Assembly: GCA_049302065.1 (NCBI GenBank)
Contig: JBAQLU010000202.1
Coordinates: 254 to 64,253, forward strand
Source of the DNA: Thermodesulfovibrionales bacterium
GTDB taxonomy: Bacteria > Nitrospirota > Thermodesulfovibrionia > Thermodesulfovibrionales > SM23-35
Length of the DNA: 64,000 nt
Reading direction: 5' to 3'
The position numbers were made by a program, and so were the translations under genes. The notes under the pieces are model-generated. The model saw nothing but the letters and a program-made list of their open reading frames with translations, was not told where the DNA came from and ran no database searches. Positions 28,791 to 42,567 of this stretch are shown in pieces. How positions within the stretch are numbered: position 1 is the stretch's first letter; the number at the start of each line of letters is the position of its first letter.

Positions 28791-29012
28791 TCCCCATCAG
28801 AAAATCCTGTAAACCTTAAATCCGTAAGCTCACGGTATAAATAATTTCGTATAGAAAGACTCAGCACACTTCTCAGTCGACTGGCGCGATGTTCTCAAAG
28901 AAACAAACACTCCAGGGCATCCTGATAATACTGCGGAGTACGACTCGGAATGGTCAAGTAAGCCCATAAAAGAAAGCCGCCCCCCTATCGACTAAACATT
29001 CCTCAACGTCAG

Positions 29013-29696
29013 TTATATCGCTTGTTCCAGCAGTTGACCATGCTCCTTTAACCAGGCCTTTGCCTTATCCATGGTCGAAGTTCGTGCGCGGACGATGTTC
29101 CAGAACCTGGGCGTGTGGTTGGCCTCCATGAGGTGGGCGAGTTCATGGACGATGACGTAGTCGATGACAAACATCGGCGCTTTAATCAGGCGCCAGTTAA
29201 AATTGACGTTGTCATTCAGGGTGCAGGAACCCCAACGGTAACGGTTGTCCACGATCTTGACCCCGGCAATATCAACGCCGAGGTCGCGGGCGTGAAGCTT
29301 CACTCGTGGGACAAGCTTTTCTTTGGCCTTGCCGATATACCATTCCAACAAGGCCTCTGTCCGCTTCTCCCCACGTGCAGCCGGAATAAGGAACCGCTGG
29401 CTGAACTGAACCCCGGCCAGCCCCGTTTTGACTACCTCGATCCGGTATTGACGGCCCAGATAGAGCGCAGATTCGCCGCTGACCAGTTCCTTCCCAGGGG
29501 CATGGGGCAGGTCCTGATATTTCTGCGAATGACCGATTTTTTCGTAAATCCATTGGCGCTTTGATTCCACCACCTGTTGGATTGTTTCGTCGGATATTCC
29601 TTCCGGAGCATGTACCGCTACCCTACGATCTCGCTCGACGGTGATGGTCAGTTTGCGTCGCTTGACAGATTTTTGGATGGTGTATACCAATTTCAT
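29013..29696 (-). CDS. DUF45/YgjP-type zinc metallopeptidase (M48-like)
   Basis: HELAHLMEANH (HExxH) near the C-terminus. Immediately downstream of hsdR, a common association. Confidence 0.8.
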   Translation of the reverse strand: MKLVYTIQKSVKRRKLTITVERDRRVAVHAPEGISDETIQQVVESKRQWIYEKIGHSQKYQDLPHAPGKELVSGESALYLGRQYRIEVVKTGLAGVQFSQRFLIPAARGEKRTEALLEWYIGKAKEKLVPRVKLHARDLGVDIAGVKIVDNRYRWGSCTLNDNVNFNWRLIKAPMFVIDYVIVHELAHLMEANHTPRFWNIVRARTSTMDKAKAWLKEHGQLLEQAI

Positions 29697-29700
29697 TCAA

Positions 29701-32700
29701 CTATTCCGCGTAGAGAATGATATCGTTTTTCTTCTCTGCGATTTCCATGAGCCGGCTGATGATATGTGCACGGTTCTTCACGATACGGGGGAGCTTTGCA
29801 AACTCCGGCGCAAGCAATATCTTTTGAAGCTCCGCCCTTAATTTACTGCGCGCAGGAATGCTCTCCCAGAAACCGGTGAGTTTCAACTCTCGCTCTACAG
29901 CCAGAAAAGCCTTCTGCGTCAGGTCAACCAAATGGCTGATCCTGTCCTCCCGGCTTATACCATAGGGCGGTGTCGCCTCAGCAACCTTCAACAGATCAAA
30001 GACATTTCCTGCAGTTCCTTCACCAAATATCTCCCGCTCAAACATACGGAAGAACGGCATTTGCTTCTTCCGGTGAAGCCCATAAGTCGGCTCCTTTCCG
30101 GCGTTGATGATCCGTGCCCTGAGCTTTTCGAGCTCTTCGTAAATCTTTTTCCAGTTGTTGCGGAACTCCTCAAAGATCTTCGCCAATGCCTCGGCAAAAG
30201 AGGCCTGCAAATCCGGGTCGTCGTCCAATTCTATGTCGAGGTGGTGGCGAATGGCGTGTTCAACCTCCGCAGCCTTGGTCTTGGTGCGGTTTCGTTTGCC
30301 CACCTGCTTCTCAAAGTCTTGATCAAGGATCGAGATCGGTTCGATCTTCACGTCGATCCCTTTTGACTCAAGCCAGGCGTCAGTAATACTACGCAGCTTG
30401 GGCGGGATGCCTTTCATGCTCAGCCGCTCGTCCCGAAAGTGCTTCCCGGCCAGCACATTGATCTCGTTAAGTGCATTGTAGTCACGCATGTACTCCAGAG
30501 CCTGCCTGGCAGGGAAAACCAGATTCAGGCACTTGGTCAGCTTCTTGAACGCCAGCATGAAGTCGAACCGCAGGTCTTCGTCATAAAACAGGTCGAAAAA
30601 CGCATCATGATCGGTCAGGTCTGTCAGGCCGTGCTTTTTGAGCAGGTCCATGATCGCCGCATGGCTCGCCTTGAGTTCGCGCAGTTCTTCCTCGGGAAAA
30701 CTGAGGGCATCGAGCACTTCCTTCTGTTCCCGCTCGTCGTAGTTGTCGATCGCCTTTTTGAGGTGGTGCCCGACACCGACATAATCGACCACAAAGCCCT
30801 TGTCCTTGGCTTCACCTGCCACGCGGTTCACACGGGCAATGGCCTGAAGGAGGCTGTGCGCAACGATCACCTTATCGAGATACATCACCTGTTCCACCGG
30901 CGCATCGAAGCCTGTCAGGAGCATGTTATTGACGATCACAATACCCATATCGCCCGTAACCCCTTCATCTTCATTACCAAAGGCCATCTTAAAGCTCTTG
31001 ATGCTGGTCTCGTGCTTTGACCTGTCCGAAAAGGCCTTGAGGTGCGGCAGGTCATTGTGGCTGCCAGAGATGATAACGTCTGTTTTCAGCCTTTTGAGTT
31101 GGTCAAGATCGAGCTTCTGCGGGTTGGCCTTTTCCAGATCAACAAAGGTATCCGCCAAGGCGGCATCGATATATGTTTTATATCGCACCGCAGCCTCTCG
31201 TGAGGTGGCAACTACCTGTGCCTTATATCCGTTGGGGAAGACATGCGTCAGGTAGTGGTCCACCATGTCTTTGGCCTTGGCCTCGATGGTAGTCTTGGAT
31301 TCCAGATAGGCATCGCGGGAGCCGTAACCAAGGATCTCCATACGCTGCTTCAGGTTATAGTCGCTGAACACATCCTCAAACGCCGCGTCCATCCCTTGCC
31401 GGTCCTTGACCTCGGCCTTATGCGTCCGGCCTTCATAAACGATCTCCAGGGTCACTCCGTCTTCGATAGACTGGCGCATGGTGTACTTGTCTATGTAGTC
31501 GCCGAAGACCCGTTCGGTCTTGTCAATGGGAGTGCCGGTGTAGCCTATCCGGGCAGCATTGGGCAGGCCTTTGTCAAAGTTTGCGCCAAGCTGCGCGTAT
31601 TGGGAACGGTGCGCCTCGTCGGTCATCACCAGAATGTTAGGGCTGGTGTTCAGCTCTGGGAAGACCTCGGTCAAGTCGGCTTCGCGGAACTTGTGGATCA
31701 TAGCCATGACCAGATCAGAGGAGTCTGAACGCAGGAGTTCCTTCAACTTTTTAATGCTGTCAGCTACTTTCACGGTAAAGCCGATGCTCTGGCTGGTCTC
31801 GGAGAGCTGGCCTTCCAGTTGGGTCCGGTCAGTAACAAAGACCACCTTCCAATGCGATAGATGGGCGTGGCGATACATCTCGCGCACCATAAACATCATG
31901 GTCAGCGATTTGCCCGATCCCTGAGTATGCCAGATGACGCCACTCCTCTCGCGCGGGCTCTTTCCTTCCAACAGTCGCTTGACCGCCAGTTTGACGGCGC
32001 GGAATTGCTGGTAGCGACCCACGATCTTGATGGTCTCGCCCTTATCGTTCGTTCCGAAGAGGGTAAAGGTTCGAATGAGGTCAAGCAGGTTGTCGCGGTC
32101 CAGCATCCCTGCAACCAGTCGCTGCTGATCATTCGGTCCGCTCGTGCCGTGATACAGGTCGTCAACGGTTCGGGGATAAGGGTCAGCCCAGCGATAGAAG
32201 TATTTCTCGCTGTGGGTTGTGATGGTGCCGAACTTTGCTTCCTGGCGGCAGGTGGCGATAACGATCTGGTTGTAATAAAACAGCGGTGCGCTGCCTTCGC
32301 CTTTTGCACCGCGCTGTTCGCTATATCGAAGCATCTGGTCAATGGCTTCAGGAATGGCGTCTTTCACCTTGGGTGATTTGCACTCGATTACAACCACAGG
32401 CAGGCCGTTCAGAAACAGCACGATGTCTGGGACGATGTGGTATTCAGTGCCAAGGATGCGCACCTTGAATTGGCAGACAGCAATAAAGCGGTTGTTGTAC
32501 CGATGTGTGAAGTCCACAAAACGAACTGTCGGACTTTTCTCGCCGGTCTGGCGGTTTTCGCTGACACTGGTGTTTTCGAGCAAGAGGGTGAAGACGTGGC
32601 GGTTGTTCTGGATCAGGCCAGTGCCAGGGAAACTGGCAGTGAGTTGCTTGACAACCTCTTCCACCTGATCGTCTTCCAACCAGTCATTGATGACTTTGAT

Positions 32701-32892
32701 TTGCTCACGCAAGACCGACAGCATCACCACTTCGGTAAAGCTCTGGCGAAAGCTGTCACTCGGGTGCTGTTTGCTGTCGAGGTCGAGGATTTCCCAGCCC
32801 AAGCCCGCAAGCTGGTCGAGTAAGGGTTTCTCGACGTGCTTGCGCTCGTCTATTCTCAAGTACGAAGTTTGAGGGGTAAAGTTTGAAGTCAC
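29701..32892 (-). CDS. hsdR: Type I restriction enzyme R subunit
   Basis: 1063 aa. N-terminal PD-(D/E)xK region VPDIVLFLNGLPVVVIECK, SF2 motifs HTQGSGKS and MTDEAHRSQ, and a helical C-terminus. GTG start overlaps the upstream stop (GTGA). Confidence 0.92.
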   Translation of the reverse strand: MTSNFTPQTSYLRIDERKHVEKPLLDQLAGLGWEILDLDSKQHPSDSFRQSFTEVVMLSVLREQIKVINDWLEDDQVEEVVKQLTASFPGTGLIQNNRHVFTLLLENTSVSENRQTGEKSPTVRFVDFTHRYNNRFIAVCQFKVRILGTEYHIVPDIVLFLNGLPVVVIECKSPKVKDAIPEAIDQMLRYSEQRGAKGEGSAPLFYYNQIVIATCRQEAKFGTITTHSEKYFYRWADPYPRTVDDLYHGTSGPNDQQRLVAGMLDRDNLLDLIRTFTLFGTNDKGETIKIVGRYQQFRAVKLAVKRLLEGKSPRERSGVIWHTQGSGKSLTMMFMVREMYRHAHLSHWKVVFVTDRTQLEGQLSETSQSIGFTVKVADSIKKLKELLRSDSSDLVMAMIHKFREADLTEVFPELNTSPNILVMTDEAHRSQYAQLGANFDKGLPNAARIGYTGTPIDKTERVFGDYIDKYTMRQSIEDGVTLEIVYEGRTHKAEVKDRQGMDAAFEDVFSDYNLKQRMEILGYGSRDAYLESKTTIEAKAKDMVDHYLTHVFPNGYKAQVVATSREAAVRYKTYIDAALADTFVDLEKANPQKLDLDQLKRLKTDVIISGSHNDLPHLKAFSDRSKHETSIKSFKMAFGNEDEGVTGDMGIVIVNNMLLTGFDAPVEQVMYLDKVIVAHSLLQAIARVNRVAGEAKDKGFVVDYVGVGHHLKKAIDNYDEREQKEVLDALSFPEEELRELKASHAAIMDLLKKHGLTDLTDHDAFFDLFYDEDLRFDFMLAFKKLTKCLNLVFPARQALEYMRDYNALNEINVLAGKHFRDERLSMKGIPPKLRSITDAWLESKGIDVKIEPISILDQDFEKQVGKRNRTKTKAAEVEHAIRHHLDIELDDDPDLQASFAEALAKIFEEFRNNWKKIYEELEKLRARIINAGKEPTYGLHRKKQMPFFRMFEREIFGEGTAGNVFDLLKVAEATPPYGISREDRISHLVDLTQKAFLAVERELKLTGFWESIPARSKLRAELQKILLAPEFAKLPRIVKNRAHIISRLMEIAEKKNDIILYAE

Positions 32893-33743
32893 GTTTTTTT
32901 CCTGGATAGTGGCAATGCCTTTTTTGATCCCGGCGGCAGGAAGCTCTCTCCGGTAACAATCTTTTTACCTGTTTTTGCTTCCAGTTCACGCCTTGCCTTT
33001 TTGGCAATGCCGCCGCCTTTTTTACCGGCAACCTTGTTTTCTTTCATTCCGGCGGCTTTCATGGTCTCCGCTATTTGCCGCGTGGAAAGTTCGGCAAGAG
33101 CGGTAAAGATCAGTTCGGCCTCGGTCATATGATCTCTGAGGTTTTGCGTTTTCAGCCCTTTCATTTCCTTATGCTTTTTTACGGAGACATCAGCCCATTC
33201 CTGATGAATAATATTGATCAATATAGCGTATTCCTCTTCTTCTTTAATCTCATGATCTTTCCAATAATCCGTCAGTTTGTTGCGGGTCTCCTGCCCCATC
33301 ATCCGCTGCTGAATCCATTTTTCGCTTCTTCCATGCTGTTGCCAGTATTCCCGCGCCCTGTCTAAAGAACGCGCCGGGTCCGCCATGTCCTGCATACGTT
33401 CATAGCCGACTTTAGCCAGCCATAGTTTGATCGGCTCCGCCTTGGGGCTGGGAACGGACTGGATAAGACGCAAAAGCGTTTCAGGATCAGCGACATCGGT
33501 AAGGTATTTTTTACCGTCGGCCGCTTCCATTTTCAGTCGGTGACAATTTGTCACCGACTGACTTCCTTCCTTTTTCAGCCGTTCCTTCAGTTTGTTCCAG
33601 TATTTCCGCGCAGTCTGGTAATCAGGCTGCTGGATTAACACCTGAATAATATCCACTACAGAGAAATACCATGTTTCAGATTTCTCATCATAAACTCTCC
33701 GTATTTTATAATCTTCAAATACAGCCAGCGAGTTTTCTTTCAT
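32889..33743 (-). CDS. Bro-N domain protein (antirepressor-like)
   Basis: LAVFEDYKIRRVYDEKSETWYFSVVDIIQVL matches the Bro-N pattern. Long helical C-terminal part. Translationally coupled to hsdR. Confidence 0.65.
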   Translation of the reverse strand: MKENSLAVFEDYKIRRVYDEKSETWYFSVVDIIQVLIQQPDYQTARKYWNKLKERLKKEGSQSVTNCHRLKMEAADGKKYLTDVADPETLLRLIQSVPSPKAEPIKLWLAKVGYERMQDMADPARSLDRAREYWQQHGRSEKWIQQRMMGQETRNKLTDYWKDHEIKEEEEYAILINIIHQEWADVSVKKHKEMKGLKTQNLRDHMTEAELIFTALAELSTRQIAETMKAAGMKENKVAGKKGGGIAKKARRELEAKTGKKIVTGESFLPPGSKKALPLSRKKT

Positions 33744-33769
33744 CTTCCGCTCCCTTTATCCCTTTTCTA

Positions 33770-33952
33770 TCAGGGTTTGATATAGGCATTCAGGCCGATG
33801 ATGACAGGTTTGTCGTTTACTTTGGCGGTGGTAACAGCATTTCCCCTCGTGCTCGCAACCACAAGTGTTTTGCCGGATGCCGACGGAGTGGGCGTTTCCA
33901 GGTCAATTTCGATATAAAGCTTGTTGTCCTTGATTTCAACTTTCATTGCCAT
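33770..33952 (-). CDS. 60-aa hypothetical protein
   Basis: AAGGAGA SD 7 nt before the ATG at 33952. MAMKVEIKDNKLYIEIDLETPTPSASGKTLVVAST... The track ORF upstream extension is read-through from the hsdR fragment. Confidence 0.5.
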   Translation of the reverse strand: MAMKVEIKDNKLYIEIDLETPTPSASGKTLVVASTRGNAVTTAKVNDKPVIIGLNAYIKP

Positions 33953-34016
33953 TGGTATATCTCCTTTTCTTGATTGATTTTGATTCCATTGCTTTGCTGC
34001 GTGCCTCAATGAAGCC

Positions 34017-34127
34017 GTCGAGGTCGAGAATCTCCCAGCCCAGCCCGGCAAGCTGGTCGAGCAAGGGTTCCTCGACGTGGTTGCGTTCGTCGAGTTTGAT
34101 GTGCTGATGTGTTTTGTCCAGGGTCAT
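34017..34127 (-). pseudogene. Remnant of an hsdR 5' end (first ~37 codons)
   Basis: MTLDKTHQHIKLDERNHVEEPLLDQLAGLGWEILDLD compares with hsdR ...YLRIDERKHVEKPLLDQLAGLGWEILDLD. The nucleotide sequences of 34017-34090 and 32775-32850 are visibly near-identical. Confidence 0.75.
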
Positions 34128-34159
34128 ATATTTGCCTATTTTAATAACCTACAGACCGC

Positions 34160-35269
34160 TTATCGTAAAGTTCTCGTCTCGATCTCTCGAACGAGGCTTT
34201 CGATGTCCTGCCCAGCAAAGGTATTATTTCTTCGCCAGCCAGATCTGATTTGTTTCTCAACATAAAGTTCCCTGTCCCTAGCACTTGCGCAGATGCGGTA
34301 GCTGGTTTTAGCAATTAATGTTGGGAACCCGTCCACAACCTGCCAGTCATGGATAGACGGAGCCAGTCTTCCGAGATGCGCGAGAAAAGCAGCTGTGGAC
34401 TCAAAGCGCTGTCGTGGTAACCTGTTACATGCTTTTGTAACCGTGCGACGTAATGGACCGCAAACCCACGGTGGTAGCGTCCCGCTATCAATGACACGGC
34501 CTCGCTCAATCTTAGCTGAGATGGTTTGAGTAGCGTAGATTGATCTATCAACATCTCCTTGAATTGCAAAATACTTCTTCTTTTCCCTCTTATTGAGCCA
34601 GGCGTTCTCGTCATATGGTAAGTAGCCTCCCAGAAGTTGAAACAGTAGTACCCCAACCTGGTAGAGATCGCCTGCGACACCGTACTGATTGCTGCTGATC
34701 GATTCCGGTGGTCGATATATTAGCGAGTGGCCAGACCCTGGAACTGTTTCCATTCCATGTGGTATTGCTTTGACCGATCCGAAATCGCCAATAAGTGCCC
34801 GTCCTCTTTGATCGATCAGGATGTTCTGTGGTTTCAAGTCCCGATGAAGAAGTCTATGGGAGTGTAAATCAACAAGCCCGGCCAAAACTTCCTGTGTGAG
34901 TTTCACTGCATGCTTGTTGCCAGAGACACCTCCCGTGCCAATGAGATCTTCCATGTCGCCGTTCGGATAAAACGGAGTAACGAAATAGGCGTACTCATGG
35001 TCGACGTATGCAGCATCGAGAATCTGAACCACGTGATCGGACCGAATGGCTGCCAAGTTACGTGGTTCTGCGTGGTACTGAGGGTCGTTTCCCCAGTAGT
35101 AAAATTTGACTGCGACTCTGCGATTATGGACCCGATTCTTGCCGAAGAACGTGTATCCGTTCGCTCCCTTGTCGCAGACCTTGTCAATGTCAATGCTTGC
35201 GGACAGGTCACCGAGCTTCAGTTTGATACTCTCCGGAATAGCGAGAAGATTTACATTAATTTTGCTCAT
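34160..35269 (-). CDS. Hanks-type Ser/Thr protein kinase with a unique C-terminal domain
   Basis: VAVKFY (catalytic Lys), HRDLKPQNILI, GDFGS and YRPPE. About 100 aa of C-terminal sequence with no recognised family. Confidence 0.85.
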   Translation of the reverse strand: MSKINVNLLAIPESIKLKLGDLSASIDIDKVCDKGANGYTFFGKNRVHNRRVAVKFYYWGNDPQYHAEPRNLAAIRSDHVVQILDAAYVDHEYAYFVTPFYPNGDMEDLIGTGGVSGNKHAVKLTQEVLAGLVDLHSHRLLHRDLKPQNILIDQRGRALIGDFGSVKAIPHGMETVPGSGHSLIYRPPESISSNQYGVAGDLYQVGVLLFQLLGGYLPYDENAWLNKREKKKYFAIQGDVDRSIYATQTISAKIERGRVIDSGTLPPWVCGPLRRTVTKACNRLPRQRFESTAAFLAHLGRLAPSIHDWQVVDGFPTLIAKTSYRICASARDRELYVEKQIRSGWRRNNTFAGQDIESLVREIETRTLR

Positions 35270-35682
35270 TCATCTTCCAGTGCGGTAAGGGCCGTGAAGA
35301 AGGCATCGCGTTGGTACTGATTGAGAGCAGCGGGCGCTGCATCGGGATTCTTCTTTGATACAGTTGCTATTGTCTGTGGTGACAACAGGTGTGTATCGCA
35401 TATTTCAATGAGCTGAATGATCCCCTCCATCTTAAAACTGACAGGTCCCCCCGCGAATTTACCCTTTCTCCCTCGCTTTTTGATCGCGATCCGGTCAATT
35501 CCATGGTATTTGATTAACGCAGTCATCGCATCCCGGAAGGCCCGTACTTGTCCAGAGTCCTCATCATCAGGTAGAGTGATCTTCCGTGGTTCGCTGTCAA
35601 TCAAGCTCCATGACGTCTGTGTGCCATCCAGAATAACAACTATTGCATCATGCCCTACCAATTCAATTCCGCAAATCTTCAT
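35266..35682 (-). CDS. 138-aa hypothetical protein (DUF3010-like by recollection)
   Basis: MKICGIELVGHDAIVVILDG... AGGGAGA SD. The stop overlaps the kinase start by 4 nt. The family assignment is from memory only. Confidence 0.5.
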   Translation of the reverse strand: MKICGIELVGHDAIVVILDGTQTSWSLIDSEPRKITLPDDEDSGQVRAFRDAMTALIKYHGIDRIAIKKRGRKGKFAGGPVSFKMEGIIQLIEICDTHLLSPQTIATVSKKNPDAAPAALNQYQRDAFFTALTALEDE

Positions 35683-35762
35683 TATCTCCCTTGCGAACGG
35701 GGCAATTCACGGCTTACCCCGAAGTCTTTTATGTTGGGTAGTTGCCCAATTGCCCAAACGAC

Positions 35763-36929
35763 TCAACCTCTACCCTTGGTATATTTCACGATTCGTGCCT
35801 TCTTTTCTTCAAAAGCTTTGATCGGCTCAGGGATCGGCGGAAATAGCTGATGGAAGCCGCCGTGGATATTGCAGGCCATCTTTAATAGTGAACTCAACAG
35901 ATTGTGTGAGCTTTGCTGCGTCTCGTGTATGTGCTGCTTCAAGCGTACAGTTGTGTCGCCGCTGTCATCAATATACTGTTGATCCACCTCGCCACCGTTG
36001 TGTTCGTACACGTGGCGACGATGAAACATCAGGGAGACGAAACGGCATTCGTTTTCTTTCATGCCCGAGCATACATCGATATCAAACCAGTTCCGGAGGG
36101 TCTCGCGCACCTCTGATAGATTGTGAAAGCGCTGCTTTAACAACCGGTTTTTTCGGCGCTCCGTTAGAGGTACCCTATCGGCCAGTTGTTTTGCATACTG
36201 CGCCACGAAGGAATCGAAAGATGACACAGCATCCCTGACGCAATCCTCTGGAGCATTGCCAGCGTTGAGGCGTTCACGTATGGTCGGCACTGTTTCGCCT
36301 TCGAAGTCTGCCAGATCATTGCGGGTTCCACACTTTGAGCAGTAGCCAAATCGGCCTAAGATATCGTTGAATTCCTCACAGGCCCTACAGGTGAATTTGC
36401 GCTGTTGACTTTGTTCGGACACATAGAAGCTGGGCTTTTCGCCTTCCTTGCCCACGGCTTCGGCGACCGCATCCATGTCGATCACGACTTCGCCATCCTC
36501 CACGGAATCCAGAGCCTCGCTCAGGACTTCACAGTAGTGACGCACATAGCGTAGTTGAGCTTCCGAAAGGAATTGATAGCCAGGTTCCGTGGTAGCGCAA
36601 TAAGGGCATATGTTGGGCAATGGGCCACTGCGCCAATACCCGTTGCAGTGCGGGCAGTGCTGCCCAAACTTGCCTTGACTATCGGAGGCAATGAATACAG
36701 GAAAGCAGCCGGGGATAGGCGGAGGGTTCCACGGCTGCCCTATTCCACCTAGTTGGATCTGAGCGACGGGCACACCTTGTGGCAAAGCGTATATCGCGAA
36801 GATCACCAGCGGCACAGGACGGCTTGAGCTAAAGCCCACTTGATACGAGCGATGGCCTTTATCGTCAGTCTTAATGCCGAAAGTGATTTTGCCCCCTGAG
36901 TGACCGATTTCCTCAAATTCGCTGACCAC
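35763..36929 (-). CDS. 388-aa hypothetical protein with two zinc-ribbon motifs
   Basis: CPHCNGYW-x-CPYC and CRACEEF-x-CSKCG pairs, with a helical C-terminal half. GTG start with a GGAGAG SD. Confidence 0.6.
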   Translation of the reverse strand: MVSEFEEIGHSGGKITFGIKTDDKGHRSYQVGFSSSRPVPLVIFAIYALPQGVPVAQIQLGGIGQPWNPPPIPGCFPVFIASDSQGKFGQHCPHCNGYWRSGPLPNICPYCATTEPGYQFLSEAQLRYVRHYCEVLSEALDSVEDGEVVIDMDAVAEAVGKEGEKPSFYVSEQSQQRKFTCRACEEFNDILGRFGYCSKCGTRNDLADFEGETVPTIRERLNAGNAPEDCVRDAVSSFDSFVAQYAKQLADRVPLTERRKNRLLKQRFHNLSEVRETLRNWFDIDVCSGMKENECRFVSLMFHRRHVYEHNGGEVDQQYIDDSGDTTVRLKQHIHETQQSSHNLLSSLLKMACNIHGGFHQLFPPIPEPIKAFEEKKARIVKYTKGRG

Positions 36930-36987
36930 GTTGCTCTCCTAATATACAAAGTCTAATAGAATTTATCGTATAATCCATGGTTTCCCA

Positions 36988-38265
36988 TCAAATCGCACTC
37001 TTCAGCAAAGCAGTAACGCGTTTCTTGCCCGTGAGCAGATCTTGCATGAGAGCGGTTTTGAGTCGCATCAGCTTCTCAAGATCAGCAGAAGATCTCTGAA
37101 GTGCACGGTCTGCATTACTCAAGGTTTTCGAAATCTGTGTTTGTTCCGCAACTGTTATAGGGACGGCGATTACGTACTCTCTGAAGAACTGAAGGCCAAT
37201 GGTGACAATAGTGCTACCAGAAGCGATGCCTTCGAACTTGGGTTTATCTCGCTGTAGCCAATAATACAGATAGTAATTATCGAGTTTTGCAGGTTTGCAG
37301 CGCCACGCCATGAAATGCTGGCTAACAGCCATATCGTCTGCGAGTATCGCGCTTTTTCCTACACCAGCATCTCGTGACAATACCACTGTCCCTTTCGGGT
37401 GTAAGACGGCGGACGAGTATCTGATTCCGAGGGCGCTGATTTTTTTATCTGTCTCTGTAATCAATACTTGATCAAGCTTGCTTGAATCAGCGAGGGAAAC
37501 CCATTTGATGCCACCGTTCCAATAAGCTGCCTTTCTCTTATTTGGAGTATGACCGCTACCTCGTGTAGCTAATGCGTCGAGCTGAACCACGTCCCACTCC
37601 ACCGGAATCCTGCCCAGCGAAGAGTCTTTGAATTTATGGGTTTGTTCGGAGCGGAGGTTGCCGTGTTCGTCGATGCCACGGGTGAGAAGGTCTTGCATCA
37701 GGCCGGTCTTGATGCGCTGCTGCTTGGCAATCAACGCCTCGGTCTGTTCAATCGCTCGGTCCACCGTCGAGAGTATCTCGGCGATTTTGGTTTGTTCGGG
37801 TTTCGACTGCGGCAACTCAAAAGAGATGCAAGATAGCTGAGCCTGATTTATCGATGGAACAGCACCGGACTGAACAAAAATAGCAAAGTCTAAATCTTCA
37901 AGTAAATAAAACAAAAATAAGGGAGCAATACCATGTGGTACAGCCGCCATCATATTATTATCAATACATGTTGGCCTTGTTAAAATTCGCCTGCGATTGA
38001 GTAAAAGAGCAGCTCCGACTTTAGCAAAGACAACAGAATTTTCCGGAAATGCTTTGAACGCATCGTTCCTTCTTGTTTTTTCGTCTATCCAATTATTAGC
38101 TTCTACAATCATCTTCTTGTTGCTCGGCAATTCCATATCACTAACTTTGATAAATGGATAATCGCCATCTTTCTGTCCTTGAAGTTCCTCTCGAAATCCA
38201 TTACCACCGGTAAATTTACAGACCTCGCCAAATGTTATGGATCGCCAGCCTTCCACGGCACTCAT
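36988..38265 (-). CDS. hsdS: Type I restriction enzyme specificity subunit
   Basis: Two target-recognition domains separated by conserved helices (EQTKIAEILSTVDRAIEQTEALIAKQQRIKTGLMQDLLTRG and ...LEKLMRLKTALMQDLLTGK). The ATG at 38265 is chosen because the track start at 38403 overlaps the fic gene. Confidence 0.88.
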   Translation of the reverse strand: MSAVEGWRSITFGEVCKFTGGNGFREELQGQKDGDYPFIKVSDMELPSNKKMIVEANNWIDEKTRRNDAFKAFPENSVVFAKVGAALLLNRRRILTRPTCIDNNMMAAVPHGIAPLFLFYLLEDLDFAIFVQSGAVPSINQAQLSCISFELPQSKPEQTKIAEILSTVDRAIEQTEALIAKQQRIKTGLMQDLLTRGIDEHGNLRSEQTHKFKDSSLGRIPVEWDVVQLDALATRGSGHTPNKRKAAYWNGGIKWVSLADSSKLDQVLITETDKKISALGIRYSSAVLHPKGTVVLSRDAGVGKSAILADDMAVSQHFMAWRCKPAKLDNYYLYYWLQRDKPKFEGIASGSTIVTIGLQFFREYVIAVPITVAEQTQISKTLSNADRALQRSSADLEKLMRLKTALMQDLLTGKKRVTALLKSAI

Positions 38266-38305
38266 TTCACTCTTCCCCCTGCAAACTTCACCCCTGATCC
38301 TGCAC

Positions 38306-39523
38306 TCATCTCGCCAATGTCGGATACAGGTCCGGGAAAAAAAATCCTGCCGCATGGATGGGAAATCCCAATCTGACCTCTCCCTTCGGAGTGTCCGAAA
38401 CAAGCAATCCCTCCTCGAGAAGCAGCCCTAGAAGATTTCGTCCTGTCCGTTCCTTCAGACCGGAGGCATGAATGACGTCACCCCGCGTTGAAACACCGTG
38501 TATCAGGACTTCCTGAAGCATCCGGGACGCCTCGGGCCGGAGCGGTTGTTTTTTCCCCGACGGGCCGGGGACCATGCCCCTGTTTCGAAGATCGACATAG
38601 TGCCTGATCCGTTGGATGAGTTCTTCCAACTTAAGTAGATTGCCCATATATTCCACCTGGTCAAGGCAGATTTCGAGAAAAAAACGGCAGAACAGTATCA
38701 GCCCTTCATTCGACAGATTCCCCCTGCCGTCGAGGTCATTTTGCCGGGGTGCATCCGCCCAGGTCAGCGCCGCCTTATAATCGACGTTCCGGCGGGCAAG
38801 TCCGCGGCTCACTGACCAGAGACCGTAACCAAGGACGGGAATCCGTTGGAAATAGGCCTCTGTGAAAAGACGTGCAACACGGCCGTTGCCGTCAAGAAAG
38901 GGATGAATCCACATGAGTCGATGGTGTGCGGCTGCTGCCGCAACGAGCTTTGTCGCGCCATGATGACGGTCCGGCGCATAAAATTCCTTGAACCGGTCAA
39001 GAAATGTATCCAGAGAGTCGCTTTCCGGCGGCAGATGGCGTCCGACTTTTACCGCTTCTTTGCGAAACTCGCCCGGGAAAACCCGGCTTTCGCGCCCTGT
39101 ATCAGGGTCTTTCACGATCAGATATTCCTCCGGCAGTTGCTTATAAAATTCCCTGTGAAGATGGCAAAGGAATGTTCGACCAGCGATATTGATTCCGGGT
39201 TCTTCCTGTAATCTTTTTTCCATATCCCTTTGAACGGTAATATGGGCAACACTCTCCAACTGGAGGTTATGCTTTGCCGGTTCGGTATCGTACTGCCTCT
39301 GCATTGCGCGGACAATGTCATAAGGATGCGTGTTATGGCCCTCGATCAGATTGGAATAATAACTGTTAATGATCCGGAGCAATTCATGCAGAGAATTGAG
39401 CGTGACAGGATGCTGCCGGCTGCCAAGGGCCGCTGATTTCTGGATTACAACAAGGGCAAGGTCATGAAGCTCCTCAGCCCTTTCGGGATACAGGGGTGTC
39501 ATTTTGTGTATTTGCGAAGTCAT
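38306..39523 (-). CDS. Fic-family protein with C-terminal winged-helix
   Basis: HPFLDGNGRVARL (HxFx[D/E]GNGRxxR). The start is uncertain. The track start at 39565 is a TTG lying in a repeat-bearing AT-rich spacer, and the first ATG is at 39523. Confidence 0.85.
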   Translation of the reverse strand: MTSQIHKMTPLYPERAEELHDLALVVIQKSAALGSRQHPVTLNSLHELLRIINSYYSNLIEGHNTHPYDIVRAMQRQYDTEPAKHNLQLESVAHITVQRDMEKRLQEEPGINIAGRTFLCHLHREFYKQLPEEYLIVKDPDTGRESRVFPGEFRKEAVKVGRHLPPESDSLDTFLDRFKEFYAPDRHHGATKLVAAAAAHHRLMWIHPFLDGNGRVARLFTEAYFQRIPVLGYGLWSVSRGLARRNVDYKAALTWADAPRQNDLDGRGNLSNEGLILFCRFFLEICLDQVEYMGNLLKLEELIQRIRHYVDLRNRGMVPGPSGKKQPLRPEASRMLQEVLIHGVSTRGDVIHASGLKERTGRNLLGLLLEEGLLVSDTPKGEVRLGFPIHAAGFFFPDLYPTLAR

Positions 39524-39570
39524 ATCTATCGTATTATTGCCGATATTATTACCTATTCTTAACAATTCTA

Positions 39571-39599
39571 AGTATATATTAAATAATAATAATTAACAA
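39571..39599 (-). promoter_or_regulatory. Possible internal sigma70-type promoter in the AT-rich hsdM-fic spacer
   Basis: On the minus strand, TTGTTA-N17-TATACT. Flanked by three ATCGGCAA(A/T)A direct repeats. Confidence 0.3.
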
Positions 39600-39650
39600 T
39601 ACAAAAGAATACTATTGATACTTTATTGCCGATATATTTGCCGATGTTTT

Positions 39651-42341
39651 TCAAGCCTCCCCCAAATACCCCAACCCTGCCAGGAACCCCTCAAGCACCT
39701 TCAGCGTCTCACCACGCGCACGTTCCAACTCCCGGCTTGAGACGGCGTATTTGTCCCAAAGGTTTTCAACGACCTGAACCAGCCCACGCTTTTCGGCGTT
39801 GAGGTAACGATTCAGTTCGCTGTTGGCCAAGTCGTAGATCTTTTTCAGGATTAACTGACGAGCCTGTTCCTCGGTAAGCTGCCCGCCGATGGAGGCGAAA
39901 AGGGCGTCGGTTTTGGCAAGGCGTTCTTCGAGTACTGTCTTGTCCTTGTTCAGGGCTGTGATCTTCTTCTTGTCGACCTTGTTGGCGCTATCGAGATTTG
40001 TCAGTTGGGTGTCCACCTGTTGGATCAATTCCCGGCTCTCTGCCTTGAACTCATCGCCACCCAGGCGCTTGAGCTGGAGCTTGAGTTCCAGTTCATCGGC
40101 TTTGGTTTTGAGCGCGGACTTGCTGTCCTTGATGCGCTTCTCTATGGTGGTGACGGCCTTTTCCTGTGCTTGCAGATTTTTCAGCTCTTTGAGGGCAGAA
40201 TCGCCCTTGCTGTTTTGCAGATCGTCGATCAGTTCCTTAAGCGCTTTTTTAATGACAGCGGCAGTAACTGTCTCATCCTCTTCCGGTTCATAAGCAGCCA
40301 CTTCCTGCGCTGCTTCTACTGCCTCGGCAAGTTCACTCTGGGCCTCGCTGATCTGCGCTTCCAGCTTTTCGATATCATCGGCTTCCTTCTGGAAAAACTC
40401 CGCTATCAGGTAATCATCGGGAATCAGGCTGTGATGCCAGCCAATGGAGATGATGGTCTTGAGGTCGTAGCGTATCTGCTGCCACCAGTTCACGAACACT
40501 CCGGCGCTCTTGAATTCATCGAGTACGCTCAAGGGAATGAGCTTGGTCTTAAGCGTGGTCAATAGCTCGTGCCGCACCTCGGGCATCTTTTTGCCGTCGC
40601 GCAACTGGGCAAAGTCATTTCGGGCTACATTCCACCAGGCTTCGAGCGCGTCGTGATGGCTTGTAAGAGTTTGCTGGAGAGCGGGGTTGTCTTCGAGAGT
40701 GGTTTTGATCGCGTGCCTGGCCTCGATTCCCGCATTGAAAACAAGATAGCCAGGGCGCGCGGGCTTAAAGAGCGTGTCAGGATTTATCCCGAAGCGGCTG
40801 AAATCATCATTCAGCGCATAGACTTCGGACTCGGGTGTGCCACCAATGAGATGTGCCTGCACATCCTCGGGTTCAGGATCTGGAGTGTTGTCCACGTAGC
40901 GCCGGATGTTCAGGTTGTAGTCGTGCTTATTAACAATCTCATCCTTACTGACCAGGCGGCTGTATTTGGGAATCTCCAGCTTGCGGGTAAAGACAAAATC
41001 TATCTTCTCTATGTCTTCAGGTCGCAGTTTGTTCTGGGCCTTGCCCTCGGCGTATTCGCGGTCAGCATTGATGAACAGCACCTTGTCCTTCATGATGTCA
41101 GGTTTGTTCTTGCTACATAGGAGCACACAGGCGGGGATGCCCGTGCCGTAGAACAGGCCCGGGGGCAAGCTTATGATAGCCTCGATCATATCGTCATTGA
41201 TAAAGATCTCGCGGATCAGCTTTTCCTTACCCCCGCGAAACAGCACGCCGTGGGGCATGATGGTGGCCATGTGGCCGCGGGTCTTGAGGCTGGCGAGCAT
41301 GTGTTGCACGAACATCAGGTCTGCTTTCTTGCCGGTCTCAGGGCACCATTCGCGGAAGCGGCTGGGGAATTTCATGTTCGCCCTGCTGTAGTTCTGCGAG
41401 AAGGGTGGATTGGCTAACACGCGGTCAAACTTTCTCACCTGCCCTTTATCAAGGATCAGAGGGTCCTCCAGGGTGTCCCCGTTCTCGATCGTGAAGCGGG
41501 TGATGTTGTGGAGGATCATGTTCATGTTGCAGATCGACCAGACCGTGCCGTTTGAGTCCTGGCCAAAGAGGGCGAGATCGTTCGGGTCCTGCCCCTGTTC
41601 TTCCACATACTGATGAGACTGTATCAGGAAGCCGCCGGAACCGCACGTGGGGTCGTAGATTTCATTGCCTGCCTTGGGCTTGGTGAGCTGCACCAGCAAG
41701 CGGACCACTTCTGCAGGCGTATAGAATTCACCCCCTTTCTTGCCGGCACTGTCAGCAAAGTACTTGATCAAATATTCGTAGGCCGCGCCAAGGAGATCGG
41801 GGAATTCGAAGTTTTCATTCACCAGCACGAACCGGGGATCATTGAAGTGATCGAGCAAATCCTTCCACTTCTGGTCCGGGATTTTGGTCTTGCCTTTGAC
41901 CGCGTTGAAGTCGATGTTGTTTTTGAGCACGCCGGCAAGGGCATCGTTCTCCTCTTCCACCGCTGCGATTGCCTTGTTCAGCATGTTGCCGATGTCGTGC
42001 TTGAGGTCCTTCAATGCCGGTACCCGGTCGCCGTTCTCGTCGATCCAGGACTCATGCCAGCGGGCGCGCACAGGAACGAAAAACGTCTCGCCATAGGAGG
42101 TCTTGTCTTCCAGCAGTTCCTTAATCAGCTCGGGCTTGTCTTTCAGATGGGCGAAATCCTTCTTGCGCAATTGCTCGCGCTTGCGGTCGAACTCGTCAGA
42201 GAGGCGCTTCAGAAACAGCATCCCGAAGATGAATTCTTTGAATTCAGAGGCATCCATCTTACCACGCAGGATGTCTGCGGCTTTGAACAGAAATGATTCG
42301 AGCTGGGAGAGGGTGATTTTATCAGTGATCAAGACTGGCAA
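39651..42341 (-). CDS. hsdM: Type I R-M N6-adenine DNA methyltransferase subunit with a ~400-aa coiled-coil C-terminal extension
   Basis: HsdM_N-like N-terminus, [13 protein letters not shown] motif and LANPPFS catalytic motif. The C-terminal half is Glu/Lys/Leu-rich heptad-like sequence. Confidence 0.9.
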
Positions 42342-42567
42342 CCTTTCAGAAAGTTCAACATATTAACGGCCTGTCTTCTCACTTTCTATCTTATCCCCAT
42401 GTTGAAAAAGTGATTAATGATAATACGTTATGTCGATCAAAGACAAGGCCTATTTGCTTTTTGGGTCAAGACGAAAGTGTTCCGTGCCTATCAAAAGCAG
42501 GGACGAGGGCTTTTTTATTGCACATCATTGGATGATGCAGGTTCAACACTGGCTTTCAAATCTGAAT

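Follow-up and report, generated by a model that had tools for sequence, protein, structure and literature searches.

Two candidate defence modules, a zinc-ribbon gene and a DUF3010-kinase gene pair, in the hsdS–hsdR gap of a Nitrospirota type I restriction-modification operon

Introduction

Few kinase-based immune systems are known in bacteria, and these are either single genes or large multi-gene systems whose sensing of infection is poorly understood. Stk2 of Staphylococcus, PD-T4-6 of E. coli and the 933W Stk protein are single genes whose defining enzyme is a Hanks-type kinase with an intact catalytic core and a small extra C-terminal domain, and they are found in accessory or defence contexts. 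Here we describe a kinase that appears to share these features, although its similarity to the three proteins is limited to the generic kinase domain, and its family always comes with a second protein, DUF3010, that is predicted to have a RuvC fold. The kinase gene is the last of three that lie at positions 34160–36929 of the window, a stretch of 64,000 nt from a Thermodesulfovibrionales metagenome-assembled genome (MAG; assembly GCA_049302065.1, contig JBAQLU010000202.1, positions 254 to 64,253), where they occupy the gap between hsdS and hsdR of a type I restriction-modification (R-M) operon. The first two genes encode a zinc-ribbon protein and the DUF3010 protein.

Several other described systems resemble parts of this locus. 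HipBA, a kinase-toxin toxin-antitoxin (TA) module, has a similar layout, in that the gene for a Ser/Thr kinase is overlapped by a small gene upstream of it, and the kinase is never orphaned whereas its small partner can be. However, the window kinase is a Hanks-type Pkinase and not of the HipA fold, and its partner has a predicted RuvC fold and is not a helix-turn-helix repressor; as it is the gene architecture alone that resembles a TA pair, assignment to the HipBA-like type II TA modules was rejected. The RuvC and RuvX resolvases share with DUF3010 the predicted fold and an acidic residue in the first strand, but three of the four catalytic positions appear to be substituted in DUF3010, which also has a KKRGKKGxFAGGP loop. 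The PrrC anticodon nuclease is an example of a cargo gene embedded in a type I R-M operon, and the three window genes resemble such cargo in being non-R-M genes that lie between hsd genes and are co-oriented with them, although none of their products resembles PrrC or RloC. By analogy, the nearest to the DUF3010-kinase pair in working principle would be the single-gene kinase abortive infection (Abi) systems and the HipBA kinase-toxin TA modules, from which the pair differs in its obligate RuvC-fold partner. Lastly, MADS joins HsdM-like and HsdS-like genes with a kinase, MAD6, of ~660 aa, and both MAD7 and MAD8 are mandatory in the MacSyFinder model of the MADS authors (bioRxiv 10.1101/2023.03.30.534895).

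Results

The three genes form two modules

The zinc-ribbon gene (35763–36929; 388 aa, GTG start), the DUF3010 gene (35266–35682; 138 aa, PF11215 at 1.5e-40) and the kinase gene (34160–35269; 369 aa, Pfam Pkinase at 5.9e-34) are read in this order from the minus strand, and open reading frame (ORF) reading places all three between hsdS and hsdR, as did an earlier sequence-only reading of this DNA. That reading took them to be a single undescribed defence cassette with no role in restriction chemistry. The second part of the proposal agrees with our profile searches, in which no R-M domain was found in any of the three proteins (Pfam, PADLOC and NCBIfam), whereas the first part has to be revised, and the distribution of the genes in other genomes is what shows this.

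Loci with the kinase pair were collected from an exact-protein look-up (L009), a genome scan (L014 from Burkholderiales and L015 from Anoxynatronum, both among the matches listed with a kinase alignment), a metagenome scan seeded with six sequences of the kinase-specific C-terminal region (L094–L116), scans of viral contigs (L119 and L120), and annotated plasmids (L129 from Rhizobium and L130, Cupriavidus necator pHG1). The DUF3010 gene is directly upstream of the kinase gene in all 25 of the other non-redundant loci that have upstream DNA (L009, L014, L015, L094–L115, L120, L129 and L130, after removal of redundancy), and these include one in which the kinase is apparently split (L094) and one in which DUF3010 is split (L130). 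The pair is phylogenetically widespread, being present in Nitrospirota, Alpha-, Beta- and Deltaproteobacteria, and Clostridia. The zinc-ribbon gene is in none of the 25 pair loci, and neither DUF3010 nor the kinase is present in any of seven independent zinc-ribbon contexts (L001, L002/3, L004, L117, L118, L121–123 and L124). Each locus has a different gene immediately upstream of the pair, with examples coding for an SDH protease, DUF4145, Abi_alpha, NADAR, SEFIR/TIR and HEPN_Apea proteins as well as unknowns, and an all-versus-all blastp comparison of 196 neighbouring ORFs found no further gene common to the pair loci, the one exception being L103 with L105, which represent a single locus. 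The trio itself recurs on one contig only, of 3,938 nt (P0001, P0121 and P0241), with proteins that are 89–96% identical to those of the window. A second apparent trio on a 2,402-nt contig (P0124, DUF3010; P0110, zinc-ribbon) was rejected, as the upstream gene there codes for a SEFIR/TIR protein.

It could be argued that the zinc-ribbon protein, DUF3010 and the kinase nevertheless constitute one three-gene defence system, since the genes are adjacent and co-directional, with gaps of just 58 nt (between hsdS and the zinc-ribbon gene) and 80 nt (between the zinc-ribbon and DUF3010 genes), a scan of the three-gene segment detected neither a promoter nor a terminator on the minus strand (counts are under the shuffle expectation), and the identical trio is present on the closely related 3,938-nt contig. 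However, the absence of the zinc-ribbon gene from the other pair loci, the absence of DUF3010 and the kinase from the other zinc-ribbon contexts, and the change of upstream gene from locus to locus make a single system very unlikely. We conclude with high confidence that there are two independent modules, a stand-alone zinc-ribbon gene (module 1) and an obligate unit of DUF3010 (module 2a) and kinase (module 2b). Co-occurrence elsewhere, on which the earlier proposal depended, is thus found for DUF3010 and the kinase and not for the trio, which is essentially refuted save for one near-identical contig; the suggestion of undescribed defence genes survives in that relatives of both modules lie among defence genes in other genomes, with the qualification that these are two separate candidates.

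The kinase and its relatives

The kinase family comprises 732 clusters at E≤1e-30 and has a uniform length of ~365–370 aa. The VAVK, HRDLKPQN, DFG and PPE motifs picked out in the earlier reading are all present. Among 33 family members there is no variation at K55, H142, D144, K146, N149 or D162-F-G, and 24 of 24 kinases checked keep the VAxK Lys, HRDLKxxN and DFG. Judging from these motifs, the kinase is predicted to be catalytically intact. A unique C-terminal domain had been put at ~100 aa, but ~65 aa (approximately residues 306–369) is a better estimate, because a profile of residues 222–369 aligns weakly with the last C-lobe helices of PknB as far as ~305. Within this domain W309, R325, K339 and W345 are invariant.

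Searches of PADLOC-DB 2.0, NCBIfam, Pfam and PHROGs found no match of the three proteins to a named defence system beyond generic kinase similarity, in keeping with the earlier reading, which had matched the trio to none. The PD-T4-6 models match the kinase at 5e-27 to 1e-10, although through the kinase core only (e.g. positions 57–216 of 327). The PD-T4-6 hidden Markov models (HMMs) are known to catch ordinary PknB-like kinases (PMC11514479), and because they are unspecific in this way the match is not evidence of membership. Among phages, the only relatives of the kinase are Stk proteins of the Stx-phage 933W type, at 25% identity.

The best PADLOC match of the kinase is mad6 (1.9e-39), also through the kinase domain only (HMM positions 49–316 of 659). 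This is one of the observations expected if the kinase were a part or a regulator of a methylation system, such as a MADS-like or BREX-like R-M variant; others are that HsdM- and HsdS-type genes lie beside the kinase in both the MADS loci and the window, and that a type III-like methyltransferase flanks one other pair locus. However, the kinase scores only 83.4 bits with the NCBIfam antiphage_MADS6 equivalog, for which the cutoff is 460, and aligns only over residues 121–229, within the kinase domain; at 369 aa it is also far shorter than MAD6. None of the operon genes matches the PADLOC models of the mandatory mad7 and mad8, and the window hsdM, hsdS and hsdR, the last of which codes for a normal HsdR, have much higher scores with the type I models than with mad2 or mad5. 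Furthermore, the DUF3010-kinase pair is mobile and does not depend on methylation genes, and tblastn found no homologues of the window hsdM, hsdS and hsdR in the other pair loci searched. Membership of MADS was therefore rejected, and we regard a methylation-system role of this kind as extremely unlikely.

DUF3010 and its coupling to the kinase

An AlphaFold2 model of the DUF3010 protein (built from 37 sequences) has a pLDDT of 91.7, and Foldseek matches it to RuvC (7w8d; E 1.1e-6, TM 0.69–0.74), and also to RuvX and the poxvirus resolvases. Sequence comparison with PDB chains gave no match. DUF3010 has previously been predicted to be RNase H-like and resolvase-related, with conserved acidic residues noted (Majorek et al. 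2014, PMC3985635), and on the strength of the model we predict a RuvC/RNase H-like fold with high confidence. The conserved KKRGKKGxFAGGP loop, which is basic and Gly-rich, is the sole low-confidence part of the model.

The DUF3010 and kinase genes overlap by 4 nt, as the sequence-only reading had noticed, in an ATGA at 35266–35269. The same ATGA overlap is present at 15 of 23 pair junctions (22 other loci and the window), and all of the junctions fall between −16 and +8 nt. A kinase without DUF3010 was never seen among the loci with upstream DNA. In contrast, DUF3010 without the kinase is found in Pseudomonas (L010–L013), in Vibrionaceae (e.g. Salinivibrio, L126), on a Roseobacter plasmid (L125) and in Dissulfurispiraceae, where it is 65% identical to the window protein; the solo genes of Pseudomonas and Vibrionaceae are syntenic and core-like. 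A kinase that is never alone, a DUF3010 that often is, and an overlap in which the small gene comes first together make up the pattern expected of a dangerous kinase with a keeper or switch.

Either partner can be the one that is broken. One example is L128 (10001–11598), where an intact DUF3010 gene lies beside a decayed kinase in pieces of 245 aa and 89 aa, and a second is pHG1 (L130 6521–6934), where DUF3010 is split into ORFs of 60 aa and 72 aa beside an intact kinase. One of the solo DUF3010 genes adjoins DUF3820 and NUDIX genes and a gene for an Ada-type methyltransferase. An R-M association of DUF3010 in Photobacterium (PMC10441182) was considered and rejected, as the DUF3010/DUF3820/NUDIX arrangement is the ordinary context of the solo gene in Vibrionaceae, and the open-access literature that was searched holds no link of DUF3010 to defence. 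A search of 50,697 phage records gave no match to DUF3010, and on this sequence comparison the pair is apparently not phage-borne in sequenced phages. We note that viral-classed contigs in IMG/VR carry the zinc-ribbon gene (L117 and L118) and the pair (L119 and L120), either as defence genes of prophages or because the classification of these islands as viral is mistaken.

The zinc-ribbon protein

The zinc-ribbon family numbers 1,309 clusters at 90% identity and 1,142 at 50% identity (E≤1e-3). Nearly all of the members are 350–390 aa long, all are labelled 'hypothetical', and they lack a Pfam domain; the window protein, the N terminus of which agrees with that of its homologues, belongs to no Pfam, PADLOC, NCBIfam or PHROG family. 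Its AlphaFold2 model (pLDDT 83) has an N-terminal beta domain followed by ribbon 1, a helix, a disordered linker (residues 161–174), ribbon 2, and a helical domain (residues 205–387), the last of these being the helical C-terminal half that had been anticipated from the sequence. The two CxxC...CxxC zinc ribbons are formed by C92/C95/C108/C111 and C181/C184/C197/C200, and the eight cysteines are invariant even in members that are only 27–54% identical, which bears out their earlier identification. Other invariant residues are D83, R100, P109, Y110, Q125, Q176, G192, R305 and H310.

Residues R305 and H310 form an R-x4-H motif inside F-x-R-R-H-x-x-x-H that does not vary among 27 members with identities as low as 27%, and with a spacing that matches the HEPN RNase motif R-x4-6-H. 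Searches of 50 members against Pfam (40 at E≤10 and 10 at E≤0.05) gave no HEPN match and only weak zinc-ribbon matches, and Foldseek searches of PDB and BFVD with the model returned nothing at E≤1e-3. The best HEPN-labelled Foldseek match is a MAE_28990-like HEPN phage protein with a probability of 0.30, and hhalign against a HEPN_Apea-like neighbour aligns the two motifs with a probability of 0.1%.

Defence neighbourhoods

Genes neighbouring the pair include many that are associated with defence. There are known or candidate systems (IetA/IetS, at 8e-279, PDC-S31, PDC-S71, PD-T7-4, PDC-S32 and PDC-S09), R-M methyltransferases, a type III-like methyltransferase with a UvrD/GajB-like helicase, Abi_alpha, a DarT1-associated NADAR antitoxin, HEPN_Apea, DUF4145, GIY-YIG, an SDH/ClpP-type protease, SEFIR/TIR proteins, and the TA pairs MNT/HepT and PIN/RHH. 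Neighbours of the zinc-ribbon gene are of a similar type, and comprise SIR2 with DUF87/HerA, AAA_13, DUF4238 and Nmad2/3; NERD-UvrD with AAA_13 and SoFic; M78 with DUF4411; and a type II R-M system with Vsr/HNH, a KAP NTPase and PIN-TPR. We conclude with moderate confidence that both modules are conflict or defence genes.

Genes for IetA, an AAA ATPase, and IetS, an S8 protease, lie downstream of the pair and in the same orientation in two loci (L009 9519–14903, and pHG1, L130 6521–12385). The kinases of these loci are just 33% identical, and the pair together with IetAS may be a recurrent four-gene arrangement or a defence-island coincidence. In Anoxynatronum (L015 110–2703) three genes precede the pair, coding for a 138-aa protein, a HEPN_Apea/MAE_28990-like protein (with the Rx4H motif FRNDVAH) and a protein of 270 aa that has a hydrophobic segment at its N terminus, and insertion sequence (IS) elements lie downstream.

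A different interpretation of these neighbourhoods is that the pair has no anti-phage role, that it keeps mobile islands stable as a TA or addiction module or as a regulatory pair of the housekeeping kind, and that it is located in defence islands by hitch-hiking. The architecture is TA-like, with the small gene upstream and an overlap of 4 nt, classical TA pairs are among the neighbours, orphan DUF3010 genes and decayed kinases occur, and some of the neighbourhoods are metabolic. However, many TA-like modules in defence islands turn out to be Abi systems, the recurrent neighbours of the pair are dedicated defence genes, and the nearest kinases with an assigned role are defence-linked (mad6, and the 933W Stk at 25% identity). 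We consider it rather unlikely that the pair is a module or regulatory pair of this kind.

Organization of the R-M operon

The R-M island (~29000–42400) has a G+C content of 0.50–0.55, compared with 0.40–0.45 in its flanks, where there are ilvBN on one side and heptosyltransferase genes on the other. An exact-sequence look-up returned NCBI MFZ3138218/9. The minus-strand order begins with hsdM (39651–42341; MTase_I, 7.6e-281), a SoFic-like Fic gene (38306–39565; Fic 6.6e-15, SoFic 2.3e-29) and hsdS (36988 to ~38265; Specificity_I, 1.1e-80), which bounds the cargo slot on its upstream side. The zinc-ribbon, DUF3010 and kinase genes come next, and are followed by a remnant of the 5′ end of hsdR (34028–34127, ~100 nt), a 60-aa ORF with an AAGGAG ribosome-binding site (33770–33952), a Bro-N gene (32889–33743; Bro-N 8.6e-8, and PDC-S13 at 1.8e-119, almost full-length), hsdR (29701–32892; REase_I, 1e-117), which is the downstream boundary of the slot, and a gene for a YgjP-like metallopeptidase (29013–29696) at the end of the island operon. 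The Fic and Bro-N genes are thus part of the same operon, as had been proposed, and hsdM, hsdS and hsdR are all present as ordinary type I genes. Functional dependence of the two modules on the R-M enzyme is not indicated, because both occur without R-M genes elsewhere.

The hsdR remnant starts 30 nt past the kinase stop and aligns to the true hsdR start at 32790–32892, with most columns identical and the reading frame shared (DERxHVExPLLDQLAGLGWEILDLD). As this remnant of the hsdR 5′ end precedes the 60-aa ORF and the Bro-N gene, the unit formed by these two resembles a later insertion, and the hsdS–hsdR gap looks like a site of repeated cargo accretion. At least four non-R-M units are co-oriented with the hsd genes in the operon, namely Fic, the zinc-ribbon gene, the DUF3010-kinase pair, and the 60-aa ORF with Bro-N.

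Some further features of the operon are as follows. The Fic gene sits between hsdM and hsdS, and the Bro-N stop and hsdR start overlap by 4 nt. The mechanically called hsdS ORF begins at a TTG and reaches 38403, overlapping Fic by 98 nt; the true start is probably Met47 (38265), because the HMM matches begin at approximately residue 49. At 896 aa HsdM is unusually long, and its charged C-terminal extension of ~250 aa has the look of a coiled coil; the protein still matches one PADLOC MTase_I model across residues 7–757.

Discussion

The reading that we prefer, and which we hold to be roughly an even call, is that the hsdS–hsdR gap is a slot occupied by unrelated mobile units, one of them a lone zinc-ribbon effector and another a DUF3010-kinase unit that works as a kinase-based Abi or TA-like system. 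The gap would act as a parking slot that collects several such units. As in Stk2, 933W Stk and Abi of the PD-T4-6 type, it would be the kinase that does the harm or executes the response, and the RuvC-like DUF3010 would bind the kinase and either hold it off or switch it on. A nucleic-acid structure or a product of the phage may serve as the trigger; once activated, the kinase would phosphorylate targets of the host or the phage, and the infected cell would stop growing. Our confidence in the specific combination of a kinase toxin and a RuvC-like keeper is low to moderate, and the anti-phage role, the toxicity, the physical interaction of DUF3010 with the kinase and the choice of sensing partner are steps that we infer. 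The zinc-ribbon protein would be a single-gene effector that travels alone through defence islands, and its helical domain with R-x4-H could be HEPN-like.

Several observations weigh against this interpretation. The pair has plain metabolic neighbourhoods in L014 and L096, and the defence context of both modules is guilt by association, taken from plain lists of neighbours. As no promoter or terminator was detected within the three-gene segment, expression of the three genes may simply ride on the R-M operon. The solo DUF3010 genes of Pseudomonas and Vibrionaceae are syntenic and apparently vertically inherited, which argues that DUF3010 is more than an antitoxin and has an independent function. 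A HEPN identity for the C-terminal half of the zinc-ribbon protein was rejected as an assignment and is kept as a lead, as the motif has neither profile nor fold support. Finally, the catalytic carboxylates of RuvC are D7, E66, D/H138 and D141 (RuvC numbering), and in a register set by eye and by the secondary structure of the AlphaFold2 model DUF3010 appears to keep the first of these only (D/E7); the E66 position would be taken by a near-invariant K68, and the C-terminal DxxD by Q124-x-x-A127. Because most of the carboxylate positions appear to be replaced, nuclease activity of DUF3010 is doubtful. E86 of DUF3010 is invariant and lies at a position that is non-catalytic in RuvC, and K84 is also conserved.

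These residues bear equally on the proposal that the pair is a nuclease system, with DUF3010 as a RuvC-like effector that cuts phage or host DNA and a kinase that senses infection through its C-terminal domain and activates DUF3010 by phosphorylation. The RuvC fold match (E ~1e-6), the conserved acidic residues noted in PMC3985635, and D/E7 and E86, which are invariant or nearly so, fit such a system, as does the family-specific kinase domain with its invariant W309, R325, K339 and W345, and the solo DUF3010 genes imply an autonomous activity. The Lys, Gln and Ala at the RuvC E66 and C-terminal DxxD positions (in the by-eye alignment) do not fit, and family alignments of DUF3010 show no invariant Ser or Thr. 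A kinase that is never alone is also better explained by a dangerous kinase than by a dangerous nuclease, and overall we find a nuclease system rather improbable.

Returning to the slot of mobile units with a kinase-based Abi or TA-like pair, a more far-reaching version is that the pair is a new and widespread anti-phage system, in which a degenerate RuvC-fold sensor gates an Abi kinase, and that the zinc-ribbon protein is a separate new single-gene effector, possibly a HEPN-like RNase gated by its zinc ribbons. We offer this as a tentative possibility. If DUF3010 is the sensor, it may detect phage DNA intermediates or phage proteins. Bolder still, the pair may be a portable signalling unit for varying adjacent effectors, of which IetAS in two loci could be examples.

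By analogy with the described systems, the DUF3010-kinase pair would be a variant of kinase-based defence or TA systems and the zinc-ribbon protein would represent an uncharacterised family. The locus shows the hsdS–hsdR gap as an accretion site, where the remnant of an hsdR 5′ end persists alongside the cargo units. The zinc-ribbon family, which is large and uniform in architecture, absent from the domain databases queried and consistently located in defence islands, is a dark-matter target for defence-discovery screens, and the strict coupling of DUF3010 and kinase, which extends across Nitrospirota, Clostridia and Proteobacteria, makes the pair a compact model, of two proteins only, in which to study sensing and control.

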